Assembly: GCA_049512935.1 (NCBI GenBank)
Contig: JBEKWR010000005.1
Location: 65,394 to 129,393, forward strand
From: Candidatus Bathyarchaeia archaeon
GTDB lineage: Archaea; Thermoproteota; Bathyarchaeia; Bathyarchaeales; Bathycorpusculaceae
Length of the DNA stretch: 64,000 bases
Direction: 5' to 3'
Shown: piece by piece, positions 40,336 to 48,347 of the stretch
How positions within the stretch are numbered: the stretch's first letter is position 1
Layout: every line of letters starts with the position of its first letter
The notes under the pieces: generated by a model
Seen by the model: the letters and a program-made list of their open reading frames with translations, nothing else
What the model was told of the DNA's origin: nothing
Databases searched by the model: none
Program-made: the position numbers and the translations under genes

Positions 40336-41166
40336 TCACTTCTCCGCGTCCAAGGTTCTAAGCATGCTTCCCGACTGGTAACCTTCCAAATCAAAGGTGA
40401 CGTACTTGAAACCGAGTTTTTTGAGGTTTTCAGCCACGCCGTCCAAAACGTCGATGTTGCAGAATAGTGCTCTCTCCGCTTTTGCAACCTCTATCCTTGC
40501 CAAGCCGTTGTGGTCCCTCACCCGAACCTGCTTAGCCCCAGTTAACGCCTTCACAGCCCGCTCTGCCCTGTCGATTCTGACCAGCTTTTCAGCCGTTATT
40601 CTCTCGTTGAACGGTATCCTCGACGCTAAACACGCCAAGGCAGGCTTGTCATGAACGCTAAGCCCCATGCTTTTCGCAACTTGGCGAATCTCGCCTTTGG
40701 TGAACTTGTTAACCATCCATGGGCTGTAAACGTTTTCTGCCTCCTTAACCGCTTTAAAGCCTGGCCTATGATCGCCAAGGTCTGAGAAGTTGGTGCCTTC
40801 AAAAACCGCGTGGAACCCGATTTCATGTGCGAAGTCAACGAGGCGCGCGAGCAGCTCTTTTTTGCAGTAGTAGCAGCGGTTTTCGGGGTTTCGGCTGAAA
40901 TCCTCGTTGGATAACTCGTCAGTTTCAATGATGAAAAGCTTGATGCCTATTTCTTTGGCTACCCTCTTGGCATCCTGTAGCTCTTCAGACGTGTAAGTGG
41001 GCGACTTGGCAATAACAGCCACCGCTTTCTCGCCTAGAACCTCGTGGCTGACCGCCGCCAAGGTCGAGCTGTCTACGCCGCCAGAAAACGCGATGACGAC
41101 ACCGTCTTTCCCAGTTTCCGAAATGAAAGTTCGAAGCTGCTCAAGCTTGCCGTTTAACTCGTCCAT
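40336..41166 (-). CDS. larE: ATP-dependent sulfur transferase LarE
   Basis: SGGVDS PP-loop, RCYYCK, DHRPG, CLASRIP, VRVR.H. Confidence 0.95.
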   Translation of the reverse strand: MDELNGKLEQLRTFISETGKDGVVIAFSGGVDSSTLAAVSHEVLGEKAVAVIAKSPTYTSEELQDAKRVAKEIGIKLFIIETDELSNEDFSRNPENRCYYCKKELLARLVDFAHEIGFHAVFEGTNFSDLGDHRPGFKAVKEAENVYSPWMVNKFTKGEIRQVAKSMGLSVHDKPALACLASRIPFNERITAEKLVRIDRAERAVKALTGAKQVRVRDHNGLARIEVAKAERALFCNIDVLDGVAENLKKLGFKYVTFDLEGYQSGSMLRTLDAEK

Positions 41167-41175
41167 GCAGATTAC

Positions 41176-42426
41176 CTACTTTTGGATGAAGATTTCCCTT
41201 GCCTTTGAAACAGCCATTTCAGCAAGCTCTCGCAGGGGTTTTTTGGTTTTTTCAGCCAGCCGTTTAAGGTCATCGTACTCGGGTTTTACCCGAATAACTT
41301 TCCCGTCTGCGTCTTTGACAACTTTGACTTTAACATGCTCCGTTATGCCCCCTAAAACCAAGTCAACCACGCATGATTCCCGACTCATGATGTGCCGCTC
41401 ACACGCATAGACTCTGACGCCCAGCGTGCCAGTCTCCTCAATCAGCACGCGCGAAAGACGCTGAGAATCCCCTTGGTCGGCGATGACCTTGATTATTTGC
41501 CCGGGCCTGTTCTTTTTGGTGAACATGGGAATGATGGCTACATCTTTTGCGCCTTCGGCGAGAAGTCTGTCAACGGCGTGCCCAACAATCTCGCCTGACA
41601 CGTCGTCAACGTTGGTTTCCAACACCGCAATCTGATCCTTGCCCAAGCAGCTCTCCAAAGGTTTGCCCACTACGATTCGGAGAACGTTGGGGACTTCAGC
41701 GAAATCTTTGCCGCCTGCCCCGTAACCAACCTTTAGAGGAGCCATCTCAGGGTAGAAACAGCTCACTTCCTGAGCCAAATTAACTATCAATGACGCGCCC
41801 GTGGGCGTGGCCAACTCTGACTCGACAGGCCCGCCTTTAATCGGGAAACTTTTTGATTGAAAAATGGCCAGCGCGGCAGGGGAAGGACTTGAGACGGTGC
41901 CGTGCGAGAACTGAAATAGCCCTCCGCCCACCGAGACGGGTGTCGCAACGATCTTAGCGTTGAAGAAGCCGAGGTCGTCCATGGCAACCGCTGAACCTAT
42001 GATTTCCGCTGCCGTGTCAACTAGTCCAACTTCGTGCAGGTGCGCATTTGCCAAGTGGTGTCCATGAAGCTTTGATTCAGCGTCTACAAGCGTGTGTATG
42101 ACGTTGGAGGCAAACTGCTTTGCTTTCTCGGACAAGCCGAGTTTTTCCGCCGTTTCTTCAACTATCGCGATTAGTTGTGCGCCGTCTTTTCTTGATTTTC
42201 CTTCGGCTGTAACGTCAACTTTGGTGGCTCGGAAGCCTTTCCGCATCACGTGCTTGATGTCCACCGTCACGTTCTTGTACCCGTACTCGGCGTTTTCCAG
42301 ACTCTTTATCGCCAAAGTAACCTTGTTTACGTCAGCGCCGAGGTCCAGCAGCGCACCCAGCATCATATCTCCGGAAATACCTGCGACTTGGCAGTCAATG
42401 GTAACTATTTGGGAAAATTCAGTCAT
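41176..42426 (-). CDS. larC: Nickel-pincer cofactor nickel insertase LarC
   Basis: GISGDM.LGAL, HLHEVG, TPTGA, LETNVDD, KKNRPG, ETGTLGVR, KPEYDD. Confidence 0.95.
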   Translation of the reverse strand: MTEFSQIVTIDCQVAGISGDMMLGALLDLGADVNKVTLAIKSLENAEYGYKNVTVDIKHVMRKGFRATKVDVTAEGKSRKDGAQLIAIVEETAEKLGLSEKAKQFASNVIHTLVDAESKLHGHHLANAHLHEVGLVDTAAEIIGSAVAMDDLGFFNAKIVATPVSVGGGLFQFSHGTVSSPSPAALAIFQSKSFPIKGGPVESELATPTGASLIVNLAQEVSCFYPEMAPLKVGYGAGGKDFAEVPNVLRIVVGKPLESCLGKDQIAVLETNVDDVSGEIVGHAVDRLLAEGAKDVAIIPMFTKKNRPGQIIKVIADQGDSQRLSRVLIEETGTLGVRVYACERHIMSRESCVVDLVLGGITEHVKVKVVKDADGKVIRVKPEYDDLKRLAEKTKKPLRELAEMAVSKAREIFIQK

Positions 42427-42503
42427 TATGTTTCGACCGCTGGCTACTATTAAAAAGGCAAAAACGATATATTACTTGTGGTTCTATGGCAAGTGATTAA
42501 ACA

Positions 42504-43289
42504 ATGTACGCTTTGAAGGATATTTTGGAAAAAACCGCCAAAGGCGAGGTCACGGTAGAAGAAGCCGAAAAACTGGTGCGTTTGCAAGCCGTCGCTGAGC
42601 TTGAAGGCGTGGCGAAGATTGATTTTAACAGGGAGCAGCGCAAGGGCATTCCTGAAGTTGTTTTGGCTGAAAACAAGATGCCAGCAGACGTTGTTGAAAT
42701 AACCCTGCGGATGATGCGTGAGAGCGGCAGAGTGATAGTTAGCAGATGCAGCCCAGAACACATTCAAGCCCTCAGAGGCGGGTTGCCGCGTGACGCTGTT
42801 TTCCAAGTTAATGAAAAAGCAAGAATGGCGGTTGTAAAAAACAGGGATTTCTCGGTTAAGGCTACTGGCGGAAAAATCGGGATTTTAACGGCTGGCACCT
42901 CTGACATTCCAGTCGCTGAAGAGGCGAAAGTGATTGCGGAGGAGATGGGCTGCCAAGTTTTTGCTTCGTACGACCTGGGCGTTGCTGGCATCCACAGGCT
43001 GCTTGGCCCGCTTAAGGATTTAATCATGAAGGACGTCGACGTTGTCGTTGTGGTCGCAGGCAGGGAAGGCGCCTTGTGCTCCGTTGTCGCAGGGTTAGTT
43101 AATGTTCCAGTCATCGCGGTTCCAACCTCTAACAGCTACGGCTTCGGCGAAAAAGGTGTAGGCACGCTGATGGCTATGCTTCAGTCATGCTCGCTGGGCT
43201 TAGCGGTAGTCAACATCGACGCGGGAGTTGCCGCTGGCGCGATGGCTACGTTGATCGCTAATCGAGCCGCCAAATTTAGAAAAACCTGA
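42504..43289 (+). CDS. larB: Nickel-pincer cofactor carboxylase/hydrolase LarB
   Basis: AGTSDIPVAEEA, GVAGIHRL, AGREGAL, VVNID. Confidence 0.95.
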   Translation: MYALKDILEKTAKGEVTVEEAEKLVRLQAVAELEGVAKIDFNREQRKGIPEVVLAENKMPADVVEITLRMMRESGRVIVSRCSPEHIQALRGGLPRDAVFQVNEKARMAVVKNRDFSVKATGGKIGILTAGTSDIPVAEEAKVIAEEMGCQVFASYDLGVAGIHRLLGPLKDLIMKDVDVVVVVAGREGALCSVVAGLVNVPVIAVPTSNSYGFGEKGVGTLMAMLQSCSLGLAVVNIDAGVAAGAMATLIANRAAKFRKT

Positions 43290-44803: not shown

Positions 44804-45484
44804 CTATTGCCCCCTGACCTCGGCGGGCATGTAATCATAAACGATCCCTCGCTGGATGGCTCTTTTCAGGTATGCCTCAGGGTCGATTTCCTGGACCTTC
44901 GCGTGGTCAACGTCGATAATGTAGATTTCGTGAATGCGCGCGTTTTTTATCTCTTCAAGCGTAACAGGCGGCCTCTGATAGTACGCGTCGCAGAGCCTTT
45001 TTATCTGCTGGATTTCCCAGTCTTCACGGTTCCTGGGCGGTTTGGCGAGCGCACGGGGAAACGGCAGGATATAGTGGGGAGGCACGCCCAACGCGAATTT
45101 TCCCGCGAAGCTGCTGTACCGTATTATTTTGCTTGCTAACCGAGCTGAAGTGTACGTTAACGGCGCCAGTGCGTTTTCAGGCGGAATGAAGCCTGTTTCA
45201 ACCTCTACGATAAGGTTTCCTAACCCTTTTGTGGCGAAAAGGTCGCAGGTTAAAATTTCGTTCAGTTTGTTTTCAATTTGAACCTCGTAGCCCTTTTCAA
45301 TCAGGTACTTTGCGCATACAAGCTCGTTTACGGAGTGGTTGATTTTTACGATGTTTTCTTTGCGCAGGTTCACCAGGCAGTTTTTGAGGAAGCCGAGTTT
45401 GTTTTTGACTTGCTCGTCGCAGTCGCTTGTTAGCCTAGAGAGTAAAGTCGTTAAATCATCTTCGAACTCTTGCCTGCTGCTCAT
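44804..45484 (-). CDS. Hypothetical protein with a PD-(D/E)XK nuclease-like core
   Basis: H..NE, GYEVQIE, CDLFA, IVEVETG pattern. Co-oriented with the GIY-YIG gene 5 nt away. Confidence 0.65.
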   Translation of the reverse strand: MSSRQEFEDDLTTLLSRLTSDCDEQVKNKLGFLKNCLVNLRKENIVKINHSVNELVCAKYLIEKGYEVQIENKLNEILTCDLFATKGLGNLIVEVETGFIPPENALAPLTYTSARLASKIIRYSSFAGKFALGVPPHYILPFPRALAKPPRNREDWEIQQIKRLCDAYYQRPPVTLEEIKNARIHEIYIIDVDHAKVQEIDPEAYLKRAIQRGIVYDYMPAEVRGQ

Positions 45485-45623
45485 TTACGTTTCCTTTCCA
45501 AGTTGACTTGCCCTTTGCACTTAAACTATTTGGTTTCGAAAATATATAAACTCAGAAACGCGCTGGGTGTTGAATCATTCTGTGCACAACTACGCTTATA
45601 TAGAATTTCTGCGCATTTATACA

Positions 45624-45803
45624 GTGTCCAAGTTGAGGAGCAGGCTGAAAGTCAACTAAGCTTGGCTCGGTGTAAATATTAACTTCACCGCTTGGCGCTG
45701 TCTCGGCGAAAAGTGAACGGGACACATGTTTCCCGGGGTTTAGTTAACCAGCTGGCTGAACCTTGCTAGTTGCTCAGGCTTTGACTCAACTTGGCATCCT
45801 TTT
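45624..45803 (+). ncRNA. Putative multi-branched structured ncRNA (about 180 nt)
   Basis: TATA CTTATATA at 45595-45602. Terminal 10-bp helix CCAAGTTGAG/CTCAACTTGG, several internal hairpins with G-U pairs, then TTTT. Confidence 0.6.
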
Positions 45804-45900
45804 GCTTACAGAAGCCGCATGTAAAGGGTAGACAGGGGTCGGCGGTTTTTTGTTGGGTTTGTTTTGGGTTGATTTTGTGGTTTGGGGCTTGTGGCGTTTG

Positions 45901-45991
45901 CAGGTCACGTTCTTTCCCGTGGAATCCCGTGGATTAGCGTTGTTTCCCGTTTTTTCCCGTTCATTACCGTTTCTTAGCGTTTTGGCAACGT
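45901..45991. repeat. Helically phased array of 10-bp units ending in CGT
   Basis: Eight consecutive decamers end in CGT; a ninth follows at 11 bp. Confidence 0.85.
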
Positions 45992-46053
45992 ATTCAGTTA
46001 GTGAATTATTCAGCAAGTGAATACAAACTGAGACTTGTTGATCGCTACCTCGC

Positions 46054-46239
46054 CTATGGCTTTATGGACGAGAGCACAAGCCGTGTGTTGGGCACGTCCA
46101 CATCCACAATCTTGCAACCTTTGAACTCTTTCGCTTCCCCAAGGATGCTTTTGACTGTCACGTTGTCGCCTTCGACTTTAGCGTAGATTACATCTTTAAA
46201 CTGGGTTTTCCCATCAAGGATAACGTTAAATTCACACAT
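46054..46239 (-). CDS. CooT-family nickel-binding protein
   Basis: MCEF start, DVI, ILGE, 61 aa. Confidence 0.8.
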   Translation of the reverse strand: MCEFNVILDGKTQFKDVIYAKVEGDNVTVKSILGEAKEFKGCKIVDVDVPNTRLVLSSIKP

Positions 46240-46484
46240 GAATCTTCACTGCTAGCAAAAAGAGAATTGTCGGTAATAAGCGTTTTATGGAAACAACTAA
46301 CTGTTCCTGAGAAACCTTTACTTATATCAGCTTAAGGCTTTTTGAGGAAAAGCGGTCTTGAGTCGCCTTTACTAAGTTAAAGCGGCAGAGGAAAAGTGTA
46401 AACTTCAGGGGCAGTTCAGCGTGGACACCGTAAACTTTTTATGTTTACATGGCTGATTCTTTAGAGTACGCGGTATTAAGAGGC

Positions 46485-46541
46485 ATGAAAATGAGGGATT
46501 GTCACCTCCATAGCTGGAATCGTCGGGTACTTATTCTTTGA
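46485..46541 (+). CDS. Putative ilvB leader peptide MKMRDCHLHSWNRRVLIL
   Basis: GAGG at 46480-46483, ATGs at 46485 and 46491, ending GTA CTT ATT CTT TGA within a long ilvB leader. Confidence 0.5.
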   Translation: MKMRDCHLHSWNRRVLIL

Positions 46542-46640
46542 TTCTCCCAGGAAACCCTCTGAAAAAGCCGCGTCAAAATTTGCAATCATTTCTTCCCGAG
46601 ACGAGGGTATATTTGTTGGAAAAGGAGAAAGCGATGAAAA

Positions 46641-48347
46641 ATGACTAGAATGTCTGGTGCGCAAGCACTGTTAGAATCTCTTGAACGGCAAAACGTGAAC
46701 ACCATATTCGGCATCTTAGGCGGAGCCATCCTGCCAGTTTACGACGCTTTATTGGGCAGCACGAAAATCAGGCATATCCTTGCTAGGCACGAGCAATGCG
46801 CAGCGCATGAAGCCGAAGGCTACGCACGAGCCAGCGGGCGAGTCGGAGTCTGCATGGCAACTTCAGGTCCTGGAGCGACCAACCTGGTTACGGGCATAGC
46901 GAACGCGTACATGGATTCTTCACCCATAGTGGCATTGACAGGACAGGTTCCATCCAAAGCCGTTAACTCGTCCTACATGATCGGCAAAGACGCCTTCCAA
47001 GAAGCAGACATCATCGGCATCACAACCCCAATCACGAAGTACAATTTCCAGCCAAGAACCGTCGCTGAAATTCCGACGATCGTTAACACGGCGTTCTACA
47101 TTGCGTCCACGGGCAGGCCGGGACCAGTTCTGATTGATCTGCCAAAGGACGTGCAGTCAGACATGGGTGAGGTGGAGGTGACTGACAAGATCGAAGCCCG
47201 CGGTTACAAGTCAATGATCGAGATAGACTTAACAAAGATTAGCGAAGCCGCCAGTTTGCTTGTCAGTGCGGAGCGACCCCTGATTCTGTCAGGCGGCGGA
47301 GTCATAATCTCGAACGCTTCAGACGAAATCATGGAGATGTCTGACTTGCTGATGGCGCCGGTCGCCACAACACTTATGGGCAAAGGCTCTTTCCCCGAAG
47401 TACACCCCCTATCGGTCGGAAGCATAGGGATGCATGGAAACCCGGCGGCGAACAGGCTGCTGGGTGAAGCCGACGTGCTTCTGGCTGTGGGAACAAGATT
47501 CTCTGATCGTGCAACGGCAAACCTGGACACTTTCGCGTCTGAAGCCAAGAAGATACACATCGACATTGACGAGGCAGAAATCGGCAAAAACGTCGAGGTC
47601 GAAGTGCCCATAGTCGGCGACGCCAAAACCGTCTTGAAACTTTTGTTAGCCGCCTTAGCCGATAAATTGCATAAAGGTGAAGGAACCGCTTGGACAAAAC
47701 GGGTTAAAGAGGCAAAAGAGAAGCTGAGTCCGCTGCTGAAGGATAGACCCCGAGACATCGTTCCGAAAGCGTTGCTGATGGAGTTAAGGAAACTGCTGCC
47801 TGAAAGCGCGATAGTCACCACGGAGGTTGGGCAAAACCAGATGTGGTCGGCTCTGTACTTCCAAGCCCTAAGGCCTAGAAGCTTCATCAGCTCAGGCGGG
47901 TTAGGAACCATGGGCTTCGGTTTCCCAGCGGCAATCGGCGCAAAAGTCGCCTGCCCAGACAGACCAGTCGTTGACATAGCGGGCGACGGCAGCTTCATAA
48001 TGAGCGAACAGGAACTCGCATGCTCCGTCACGGAAAAGATTCCCGTCACCGTCATAGTGCTGAACAATTCGGTGCTGGGCATGGTGGCGCAGTGGCAGAG
48101 AATGCTCTACAAACGCCGCTACATGGCTGTTCATCTGGGTAAAACGCCTGACTTCGTAAAGCTGGCTGAGGCTTACGGAGCGCAGGGGCTGCGGGCAACG
48201 TCAATCGAGGAATTCCACAAAGCAGTTAAGACAGCACTTGACAGTAAGGTTACCACGGTGATCGATGTGCCTATAGGCTCAGAGCATGACGTCGTGCCCT
48301 TTGTGCCTCCAGGCTGCGGTTTACCGCAACAGAGAGGTGACTACTAA
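46641..48347 (+). CDS. ilvB: Acetolactate synthase large subunit
   Basis: RHEQ, TSGPGATN, DAFQE, GDGSF..NN ThDP motif, GMVAQWQ. Confidence 0.97.
   Translation: MTRMSGAQALLESLERQNVNTIFGILGGAILPVYDALLGSTKIRHILARHEQCAAHEAEGYARASGRVGVCMATSGPGATNLVTGIANAYMDSSPIVALTGQVPSKAVNSSYMIGKDAFQEADIIGITTPITKYNFQPRTVAEIPTIVNTAFYIASTGRPGPVLIDLPKDVQSDMGEVEVTDKIEARGYKSMIEIDLTKISEAASLLVSAERPLILSGGGVIISNASDEIMEMSDLLMAPVATTLMGKGSFPEVHPLSVGSIGMHGNPAANRLLGEADVLLAVGTRFSDRATANLDTFASEAKKIHIDIDEAEIGKNVEVEVPIVGDAKTVLKLLLAALADKLHKGEGTAWTKRVKEAKEKLSPLLKDRPRDIVPKALLMELRKLLPESAIVTTEVGQNQMWSALYFQALRPRSFISSGGLGTMGFGFPAAIGAKVACPDRPVVDIAGDGSFIMSEQELACSVTEKIPVTVIVLNNSVLGMVAQWQRMLYKRRYMAVHLGKTPDFVKLAEAYGAQGLRATSIEEFHKAVKTALDSKVTTVIDVPIGSEHDVVPFVPPGCGLPQQRGDY

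Follow-up and report, generated by a model that had tools for sequence, protein, structure and literature searches.

The locus and its features

The window analysed here is a stretch of 64,000 nucleotides (nt) from a Candidatus Bathyarchaeia archaeon (contig JBEKWR010000005.1 of assembly GCA_049512935.1, positions 65,394 to 129,393 of the forward strand; genome G000), and it is ordinary chromosome. The element under study lies between the divergently oriented gene for a protein of 226 amino acids (aa) and the gene for CooT (Table 1). It specifies an RNA that forms one rod, composed of a closing helix of 10–13 base pairs (bp), a conserved asymmetric internal loop, a covarying middle and an apical hairpin, and this RNA is linked to the divergent nuclease-like gene both through joint presence in genomes and through conserved divergent adjacency. 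A preliminary description, made from the letters of the window, had placed a structured RNA gene beside a divergent nuclease gene; the RNA gene proved to be real, structured and evolutionarily coupled to its neighbour, and when the sequence was read, the TATA box, the 10-mers, the 10-bp helix, the inner pairings and the U-run named there were all found in place. Genomes, contigs, loci, families and genera are denoted below by G, C, L, f and g numbers.

Table 1. Coordinates of the features of the locus, in window positions.
Feature	Position	Strand	Remark
LarE-like (PP-loop), LarC and LarB-like genes	40336-43289		Nickel-pincer cofactor cluster; HAD hydrolase gene next
Stand-alone GIY-YIG protein, 90 aa	44526-44798	-	Downstream of the 226-aa gene, same operon
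226-aa protein, predicted PD-(D/E)XK fold	44804-45484	-	Conserved partner gene, no described family
10-mer TCCAAGTTGA, leader copy	45497-45506	+	mRNA reads UCAACUUGGA, then AAGGAA, AUG
First TATA-like box AATATATAA of the intergenic region	45541-45549	.	TTTAGAATATATAAAGCCAGAAAAC in relatives
TGTGCACAA element	45581-45589	+	Just upstream of the RNA's TATA box; TGTACAA in most f1 relatives
TATA box CTTATATA of the RNA gene	45595-45602	+	First paired base follows after about 25 nt
RNA gene, about 170-178 nt, rod fold	45626-45803	+	Covariance-model match 45625-45800
Closing helix P1, 5' strand CCAAGUUGAG (DNA CCAAGTTGAG)	45628-45637	+	Overlaps the 10-mer copy at 45627-45636
Internal loop 5' side (GAGCAG, consensus RAGYAN) and P1b 5' strand (GCUGA)	45638-45648	+
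Apical hairpin UGUCUCG ... CGGGACA	45699-45724	+	Strands 45699-45705 and 45718-45724; stem covaries heavily
P1b 3' strand (UCAGGC) and internal loop 3' side (UUUGA, consensus UUAGA)	45774-45784	+
Closing helix P1, 3' strand CUCAACUUGG (DNA CTCAACTTGG)	45785-45794	+
U-run (TTTT) right after the closing helix	45800-45803	+	Likely archaeal terminator
CooT	46054-46239	-	Beyond the RNA gene

To judge from its promoter and terminator, the locus would be a stand-alone gene, transcribed on its own into a stable RNA about 170 nt long. A TATA-like box is found at equal distance upstream of the RNA in relatives from families f1, f7, f14 and f19, the position and sequence of the TGTGCACAA-type element are kept in the upstream flanks of relatives, and T-runs follow the closing helix in most of them; TBP is encoded in the genome, which fits the use of TATA boxes. 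The DNA of the two P1 strands, CCAAGTTGAG and CTCAACTTGG, is exactly reverse complementary, and further pairings in the window are CUGA/UCAG, CAACUA-GC/GC-UAGUUG, CGGUG (45668-45672)/CACCG (45686-45690) and GGGUUUAGUUA/UGGCUGAACCU. The apical loop, A-rich in the window, has the sequence GAUNNCAUCAA in the majority of f1, f7 and f19, and a sequence resembling GGCUUAGAC, at the 3' side of P1b and the internal loop, was found in all lineages. Two overlapping reading frames, at 45470-45682 (plus strand) and 45552-45725 (minus strand), were considered as coding sequence and rejected as not credible, relatives differing there by many 1–3-nt insertions and deletions. A scan for sigma-70-type promoters and terminators was uninformative, since the host is an archaeon.

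RNA structure and covariation

The stretch 45620-45812 was folded on both strands, giving -69.6 kcal/mol on the plus strand (z -3.56, 0/200 shuffles as good) and -56.7 kcal/mol on the minus strand (z -2.08, 6/200 shuffles as good), and the covariance model scored the RNA gene at 108.4 bits on the plus strand versus 8.5 bits on the minus strand. Pairing and compensatory change were evaluated on two alignments. The first, a MAFFT alignment of 35 sequences made blind to structure, was used for both the rod and a cloverleaf; for the rod, 79.5% of cells were paired versus 74.2% in shuffles, with 165 versus 80.5 double-change cells (0/500 shuffles as high), and 39 of the 59 pairs had changed on both sides. 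The wide alignment, of 38 sequences from seven families, was fitted to the covariance model and therefore leans to structure, producing 84.0% paired cells versus 66.0% in shuffles, 53/59 pairs changed on both sides, and 408 versus 153 double-change cells (0/500 shuffles as high), while slid controls on the same alignment reached at most 44.5% paired. Conserved secondary structure with compensatory changes, the generic mark of a structured non-coding RNA, is thus present.

On the wide alignment, the pairs of P1 were kept in 86–96% of rows, with 12/13 pairs changed on both sides, and helices 7 and 8, in the apical hairpin, were 88–91% paired, each of their 9 pairs having changed on both sides. 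A19-U227 and C22-G224 were invariant in 38/38 rows, and U23-G223 in 37/38. This retained U-G at columns 23/223, together with the difference in model score between the strands, identifies the plus strand as the transcribed one. The universally conserved core consists of the closing helix and the internal loop (5' RAGYAN, 3' UUAGA) clamped by GCU(U)/(A)GGC, a clamp in which two pairs were invariant in 38/38 rows, and the loop motif was present in every lineage displayed.

The inner hairpins of the preliminary description are present in the window, whose sequence can itself form both the rod and the cloverleaf, and on the MAFFT alignment the cloverleaf was compatible with the data (83.0% paired versus 78.8%, 80 versus 35.9 double-change cells). 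They are nevertheless not the best-supported fold: relatives favour the nested rod, which is preferred because the helices that distinguish the two models point to it, with 44 double-change cells in the long-range helix of the rod versus 11 and 7 in the two distinctive hairpins of the cloverleaf. A more distant clade, reached through a protein search, folds unambiguously as one nested rod. In single-sequence folds of three sets, the two ends paired in 29/29, 4/4 and 10/12 sequences, and most folds gave one rod despite G+C contents from 0.34 to 0.63. Length varies among lineages: the RNA of genus g18 in f11 has about 142 nt and that of f39 has 113 nt, and further genera of f11 carry forms of about 237 nt in which there are two inner domains; the forms of about 237 nt (L176, L177) were branched inside the closing helix, and L174 and L178 folded poorly.

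Identity, distribution and paralogues of the RNA

A cmscan search, proposed in the preliminary description, was carried out with Rfam 15, and the locus matched no known family: the whole window gave 0 matches at gathering scores, and at E ≤ 10 the region 45200-46700 gave two chance-level hits (E 6 and 6.8), neither of them over the RNA. No tRNA or tmRNA was found in the known-family checks, and the genome's own signal recognition particle (SRP) RNA is located elsewhere (144.5 bits). Informal inspection by eye against the consensus of H/ACA, C/D and bulge-helix-bulge elements revealed neither an ACA box nor a C box, and no 3-4-3 motif either.

BLAST homology in relatives began and ended at the closing helix (query 149-317, corresponding to window 45628-45796). 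Searches with model R1 detected the RNA, as one main copy, in 36/120 genomes of the genus, searches with model R2 in 72/151 genomes and 27/63 genera of the order, and searches with the broader model R3 in 21/151 genomes of a phylum sample. The main copy is syntenic, with the 226-aa gene upstream on the other strand in 25/28 oriented loci and CooT and ilvB usually downstream, and genomes held 1–4 matches each, with no sign of multiplication. We regard the RNA as the founder of a family that has not been described before and that occurs in Bathyarchaeia and in one or more further classes of Thermoproteota. Across titles and the opening parts of abstracts, with subscription journals and supplements outside this scope, the literature yielded no account of an RNA or protein of this kind.

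Two weaker paralogues were located in the same genome, one of 149 nt at G000:C3:149179-149327 (plus strand; GCCAGUUGGG-GAACAC ... GGGGUUUUGACCC) and one of 237 nt at G000:C9:81352-81588 (plus strand; GGCAGGUCGGG-GAGCAC ... GGCUUAGACCC). In each, the terminal module is shared and the body is different, and each is preceded by a TATA-like box and followed by a T-run. Neither matched Rfam, the two paralogue loci L154 and L221 returning only miRNA noise (E 0.37–0.48). The C3 paralogue seems to lie upstream of genes that, judged by N-terminal similarity, encode ribosomal protein L14e and a Cbf5-like protein. Paralogues of like kind also occur in relatives. Genome G140 carries two members of the family about 1 kb apart on the same strand (L036:464-618 and L036:1501-1675), the upstream one being of a paralogue type also found in L044.

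Public metatranscriptome data included one run that contained 0.04 of the sampled words. A 163-nt contig of this run, with adapters at both ends and no strand information, covers 45652-45785 at 90–95% identity, its 7 further insert letters reading upstream as GCUGAAC, and a 34-nt piece matches 45858-45891; uncovered parts prove nothing. The contig is a weak hint of expression.

The 226-aa partner protein

Sequence searches with the 226-aa protein gave no match in Pfam, NCBIfam or the PDB. A HMMER search against 1.84 billion representatives returned 222 clusters at E ≤ 1e-3, of which 137 reached E ≤ 1e-10 and 38 reached E ≤ 1e-30, and the look-alikes in the Atlas were 'hypothetical protein' clusters of Bathyarchaeota/Thermoproteota. 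Among 46 sequences, down to 21% identity, E71, D81, E94 and K119 were invariant, and H50, G65, E96, R115, Y123, S124 and F130 were nearly so.

The AlphaFold model was of high confidence (predicted local distance difference test, pLDDT, 94.6; predicted TM-score, pTM, 0.90). Its best Foldseek match in the PDB was the CdiA-CT tRNase 4g6v (E 5.3e-4), and most of the better matches were of the restriction-endonuclease fold, among them this tRNase, XisH, SfsA, NucS/EndoMS, Can2, FokI, Hjc and tRNA-intron endonuclease; a profile search added weak matches to Cas4 and AF1548 (E 0.07–0.17). With a restriction-endonuclease-like core in its model and conserved acidic and lysine residues, the protein is nuclease-like. 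It resembles the PD-(D/E)XK superfamily in the core fold and in the invariant E71, D81, E94 and K119, and differs from it in carrying an E-x-E motif and a lysine that sits on a later helix, instead of the classic (D/E)-x-K, in an additional N-terminal three-helix part and C-terminal domain, and in the low TM-scores of the matches. The PD-(D/E)XK assignment made in the preliminary description fits these invariant residues and fold matches, and is reasonable because of them; its GIY-YIG assignment for the second gene of the operon is confirmed by a Pfam match to PF01541 (61.6 bits versus a cut-off of 22.6, E 8.9e-17).

Coupling of the RNA to the protein

Both models were applied to the same 151 genomes of the order, of which 68 held both RNA and protein, 4 the RNA only, 21 the protein only and 58 neither (nominal Fisher p 5e-19), the protein profile matching 89/151 genomes in all. 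Where both were present, the two genes lay 86–398 nt apart in 41/68 genomes and were divergent in 41/41; the other 27/68 were mostly from genus g16, in which the genes are unlinked, while in some the detected RNA was a paralogue and in some a contig break fell between the genes. Genus g16 has both partners despite the absence of linkage, with the RNA in 19/19 genomes and the protein in 17/19. In the phylum sample the protein was found in 63/151 genomes, and in genus g71, which belongs to another class, the same 11/14 genomes hold both genes, adjacent and divergent. The pair is inherited vertically and syntenically, and not patchily.

Several observations weigh against a working partnership of RNA and nuclease. 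Shared ancestry inflates the counts behind the nominal p value, and the RNA was detected in only 36/120 genomes of its own genus. The protein occurs without a detectable RNA in 21/151 genomes of the order, and whole families have the protein only, such as f15 in the phylum sample (protein 16/20, RNA 0/20), where the upstream space is too short for the RNA and another gene starts close by. A search of 900-nt upstream stretches with filters off likewise revealed no RNA in f15, f24, f25, f28, f29 or f37, in all of which the protein is present; from these protein-only lineages it follows either that the protein can exist without this RNA or that the models miss diverged forms. The fold matches of the protein had low TM-scores (0.2–0.35 on the query), with only one match at E ≤ 0.001, and the hint of expression comes from a single contig that belongs to a relative, may represent DNA and carries no strand information. 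Finally, the 226-aa frame is unbroken in 7/8 loci with a truncated RNA.

These truncated loci are of two kinds. Six of them (L024, L025, L027, L032, L037 and L042, with L024 and L025 identical) are without the 5' strand of the closing helix, and in these the RNA body starts right behind the first TATA-like box of the intergenic region. Of the RNA in L041 and L043 no more than the 3' third is left, and in L043 the protein frame is split. Paralogous RNAs that share the terminal module are present in the five truncated-locus genomes that were searched. An intact frame beside a truncated RNA argues against an indispensable antitoxin, although the paralogues could substitute, and an essential-antitoxin role of the RNA is unlikely. 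The proposal in the preliminary description that the RNA may be an antitoxin of a two-nuclease operon is made unlikely by these loci, by the vertical and syntenic inheritance of the pair, and by the GIY-YIG gene, which is linked to the RNA and the 226-aa protein only within family f1 and stands outside the pair beyond it.

Leader copy of the 10-mer and alternative explanations

The 10-mer TCCAAGTTGA occurs at 45497-45506 and at 45627-45636, the former copy lying in the leader of the 226-aa gene, 13 nt from its start codon (45484, minus strand). Genome G000 holds 20 copies on both strands of 2.30 Mb versus about 4.4 expected from length alone, and a second copy at the locus is therefore less improbable than it looks; by our own arithmetic, the odds of a copy on the right strand within a 45-nt leader are about 2 in 10,000 even at the genome frequency. 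The other copies stand in unrelated contexts, mostly coding by eye. The leader equals the RNA 5' end exactly only in the window, L034 and L041, and is one base off, with a G-U pair possible, in L029 and L030, whereas most relatives have a degenerate TTRCCARTTGA beside the start codon, often within a palindrome TTGCCA-N6-7-TGGCAA.

The intergenic region is about 260 nt long in most relatives, and shorter in the window (141 nt) and in L029 (138 nt). In these relatives it comprises the TTTAGAATATATAAAGCCAGAAAAC box, which is close to the protein gene, a middle unit that contains CCATGGTTTTTT and a second TATA box, and the RNA promoter; the corresponding AATATATAA box of the window probably serves the 226-aa gene. 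The middle unit, seen in the L016:1229-1500 region and in most relatives of the genus, is built of a TATA box GCTTAAATAG, CCATG, about 45 nt and TCCATGGTTTTTT. It is conserved and may represent one more very small transcript or else a module with a role in regulation; the window has lost it.

On the reading of the preliminary description, the RNA is a trans-acting antisense regulator or antitoxin whose 5' end (UCCAAGUUGA) pairs with the leader (UCAACUUGGA) and blocks translation of the nucleases, which we consider unlikely. It draws on the exact 10-nt complement in the window, which abuts the AAGGAA motif resembling a ribosome-binding site and forms a duplex of -17.7 kcal/mol that 0/300 shuffled leaders equalled, and on the complements that are exact in L034 and L041 and contain one G-U pair in L029 and L030. 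Duplex energies were computed between the first 18 nt of the RNA and the 45-nt leader at every locus (300 shuffles per locus), showing significant complementarity (p ≤ 0.05) in 14/52 distinct loci, where about 2.6 are expected by chance; these were 12/37 in f1 (5/19 in the own genus, 7/18 in other genera), 1/2 in f7, 1/8 in f19, 0/3 in f10, 0/1 in f14 and 0/1 in f4, and the f7 locus L137 has an extra G-C in both RNA and leader. Complementarity of 5' end and leader thus exists in the window and in a minority of loci, but complementarity that is conserved, or that co-varies with the target, was not found in orthologous loci: the other 38/52 loci were without significant complementarity, the 12 leaders read from g16, where the genes are unlinked, contained no conserved complement, and in lineages whose helix end has changed to UUGCUAAG the leader is mostly unchanged. 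The covariation of the 10-mer pair that had been anticipated was accordingly not systematic with respect to changes in the closing helix. Nor does the RNA 5' end offer an accessible single-stranded seed; 9/10 of its bases are predicted to be at least 98.7% paired (unpaired probability ≤ 0.013), 10.6 kcal/mol would be needed to open them, and they are bound more strongly by the 3' strand of the RNA itself (-20.3 kcal/mol) than by the leader, so that the pairing site is locked in the closing helix and free only if that helix opens. Variants without the 5' strand keep the 226-aa frame, which argues against an essential antitoxin, and the order-wide synteny is unlike that of toxin-antitoxin loci. 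The complementarity is enriched in f1 but is a lineage feature, not a defining one.

A shared protein-binding site, which the preliminary description had offered as the other explanation of the two 10-mers, appears doubtful to us, whether it is operator DNA, made of the leader palindrome and half-sites at the RNA gene, or a hairpin in the leader RNA that mimics the closing helix. In its favour is the palindrome itself (TTGCCAATCGACTGGCAA and the like), which most relatives of the genus carry; its site, with the first TATA-like box on one side and the start codon on the other, is a region where archaeal repressors often bind. In RNAs such as those of L035 and L094, the outer 6 bp of the closing helix are the same as the stem of the palindrome, UUGCCA/UGGCAA, and the hairpin UGCC(U)/(G)GGCA in the leader of L137 follows the UGCCC/GGGCA helix end of the RNA of that locus. 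The palindrome is, however, degraded in the window to CAAGTTGACTTG and absent from many loci of other f1 genera and from the 12 unlinked g16 leaders read, and no candidate regulator was found. Very improbable, in our view, is that the stretch is no RNA gene at all but a DNA inverted repeat (a mobile, recombination or replication element) or the long 5' untranslated region of the divergent gene, read on the other strand. Terminal inverted repeats of 10–13 bp, a near-palindromic shape, weak echo matches on the opposite strand and a few paralogous copies per genome would suit such an element, but across families and classes one syntenic copy accompanies the same gene, only one of the two strands allows many of the G-U pairs, as the U-G at columns 23/223 illustrates, the model score is confined largely to the plus strand, the stretch has its own TATA box and U-run, and in g16 the RNA is unlinked from the protein gene and hence not its leader. 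A miniature transposable element was likewise rejected, given 1–4 matches per genome and a syntenic main copy.

Neighbouring genes and repeats

Family searches of the window proteins identified LarC by its Ni_insertion match (E 2e-115) and LarB as AIR-carboxylase-like. The nickel-pincer cofactor cluster at 40336-43289 lies near the gene for the nickel chaperone CooT (46054-46239), and CooT is followed by ilvB, ilvN and the gene for a large aconitase-family subunit.

In most relatives the CooT gene comes no more than about 10 nt past the RNA, which marks the T/G-rich stretch of about 250 nt in the window as an insertion of its lineage. Between the end of the RNA and the 3' end of CooT, 8 head-to-tail 10-bp units are found at 45905-45981 (T-C/A-C/G-CGT plus 4 bases; for example TCCCGTGGAA, TCCCGTTTTT and TAGCGTTGTT), their phase equalling one helical turn. 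TTCCCGT occurs in 22 copies in the window versus 8.1 expected, a number reached by 0/100 shuffles. Just 3' of the CooT stop codon, two adjoining 16-nt direct repeats, TATTCAGTTAGTGAAT and TATTCAGCAAGTGAAT, occupy 45991-46022; each holds an ATTCA...TGAAT palindrome and looks operator-like, with no obvious target. Elsewhere in the same genome, ARAGORN called a putative tRNA-SeC (anticodon tca) at G000:C6:51427-51510.

Interpretation and comparison with known systems

The strongest signal of the locus is the evolutionary coupling of the RNA to a family-less protein of predicted PD-(D/E)XK fold, across the order and in a second class, and not the 10-mer. We lean towards the view that the RNA is the partner of the 226-aa protein, either within a ribonucleoprotein or as the regulator of a nuclease. 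Its function would then be tied to the divergently encoded protein, likely through an RNA–protein complex in which the protein would recognise the module of closing helix and internal loop, and the RNA would serve the nuclease as a regulator, an inhibitor or a guide. The leader copy would be a secondary feature limited to f1, next to the ribosome-binding site and possibly serving feedback, with the protein binding a look-alike of its RNA site in the leader or the 5' strand of the RNA pairing with the leader. As a family-specific feedback site, it is at best a tentative candidate for the mimicry of the protein's site, and a weak one for antisense pairing.

Several known systems were compared with this arrangement. 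Ro60 (Rsr) with Y RNA or YrlA, known from bacteria and animals, is similar in that the RNA ends form a closing stem with a conserved loop while the rest varies, several paralogues share the module, and the RNA gene adjoins the gene of its presumed partner; the closing stem of Y RNA also contains a conserved internal loop or bulge. The differences are a 226-aa partner of PD-(D/E)XK-like fold in place of a Ro/TROVE ring, and an RNA that is a rod of about 170 nt, with no tRNA-like domain and no match to the Y RNA of Rfam. Type III toxin-antitoxin systems (ToxIN-like), whose RNA antitoxin inhibits a nuclease toxin by binding to it, also encode a structured RNA beside a nuclease-like protein, and an inhibitory complex is a possible mode for the present pair. 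Antitoxins of type III are tandem repeats processed by the toxin and encoded upstream on the same strand; here a single, non-repetitive rod is encoded on the opposite strand (41/41) and inherited vertically and syntenically, and 8 loci carry truncated RNAs, 7 of them beside intact protein genes, with the caveat of the paralogues.

The internal loop resembles a kink-turn, the target of L7Ae, in its 3' strand GGC-UUA-GA-C and 5' strand G-(G/A)A-G(C/U), which recall a bulge followed by tandem G-A pairs, and the bulged-strand signature GGC-UUN-GA is found in all lineages; in some lineages both A's change together to C (GC/GC). In the kink-turn consensus, a bulge of three bases precedes tandem sheared G-A pairs and the opposite strand adds no unpaired bases, whereas in the best register the loop of this RNA has 6 unpaired bases on the non-bulged strand instead of 2, and is thus probably not a canonical kink-turn. 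With 6S RNA and 4.5S/SRP RNA it has in common that a stable RNA of about 110–190 nt forms a long irregular hairpin with conserved internal loops and apex, and it differs from them in having no sequence or model similarity to either and no large central bubble as in 6S.

Going further, the rod RNAs and the 226-aa protein might together be an unknown ribonucleoprotein nuclease of Thermoproteota, RNA-directed or RNA-gated, a proposal that we put forward as speculative and rather unlikely. The protein would then dock on the shared module of closing helix and internal loop, and the variable bodies of the paralogous RNAs in one genome (about 150, 170 and 237 nt) would give it different specificities or regulatory states; if this were true, the ribonucleoprotein nuclease would have no relation to the CRISPR, Argonaute and TnpB-type systems.

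In sediments, peat and soils, few uncultured archaea are as abundant as the Bathyarchaeia, and to our knowledge almost nothing is known of their non-coding RNAs. The locus yields an RNA family whose structure is well supported, with a covariance model that spans an order and a second class, and a specific partner of predicted nuclease fold; the pair is small (about 170 nt and 226 aa) and suited to in vitro work. If the complex forms, it would be a novel archaeal ribonucleoprotein, maybe an RNA-controlled nuclease, and would assign a role to a protein family that is now without annotation.

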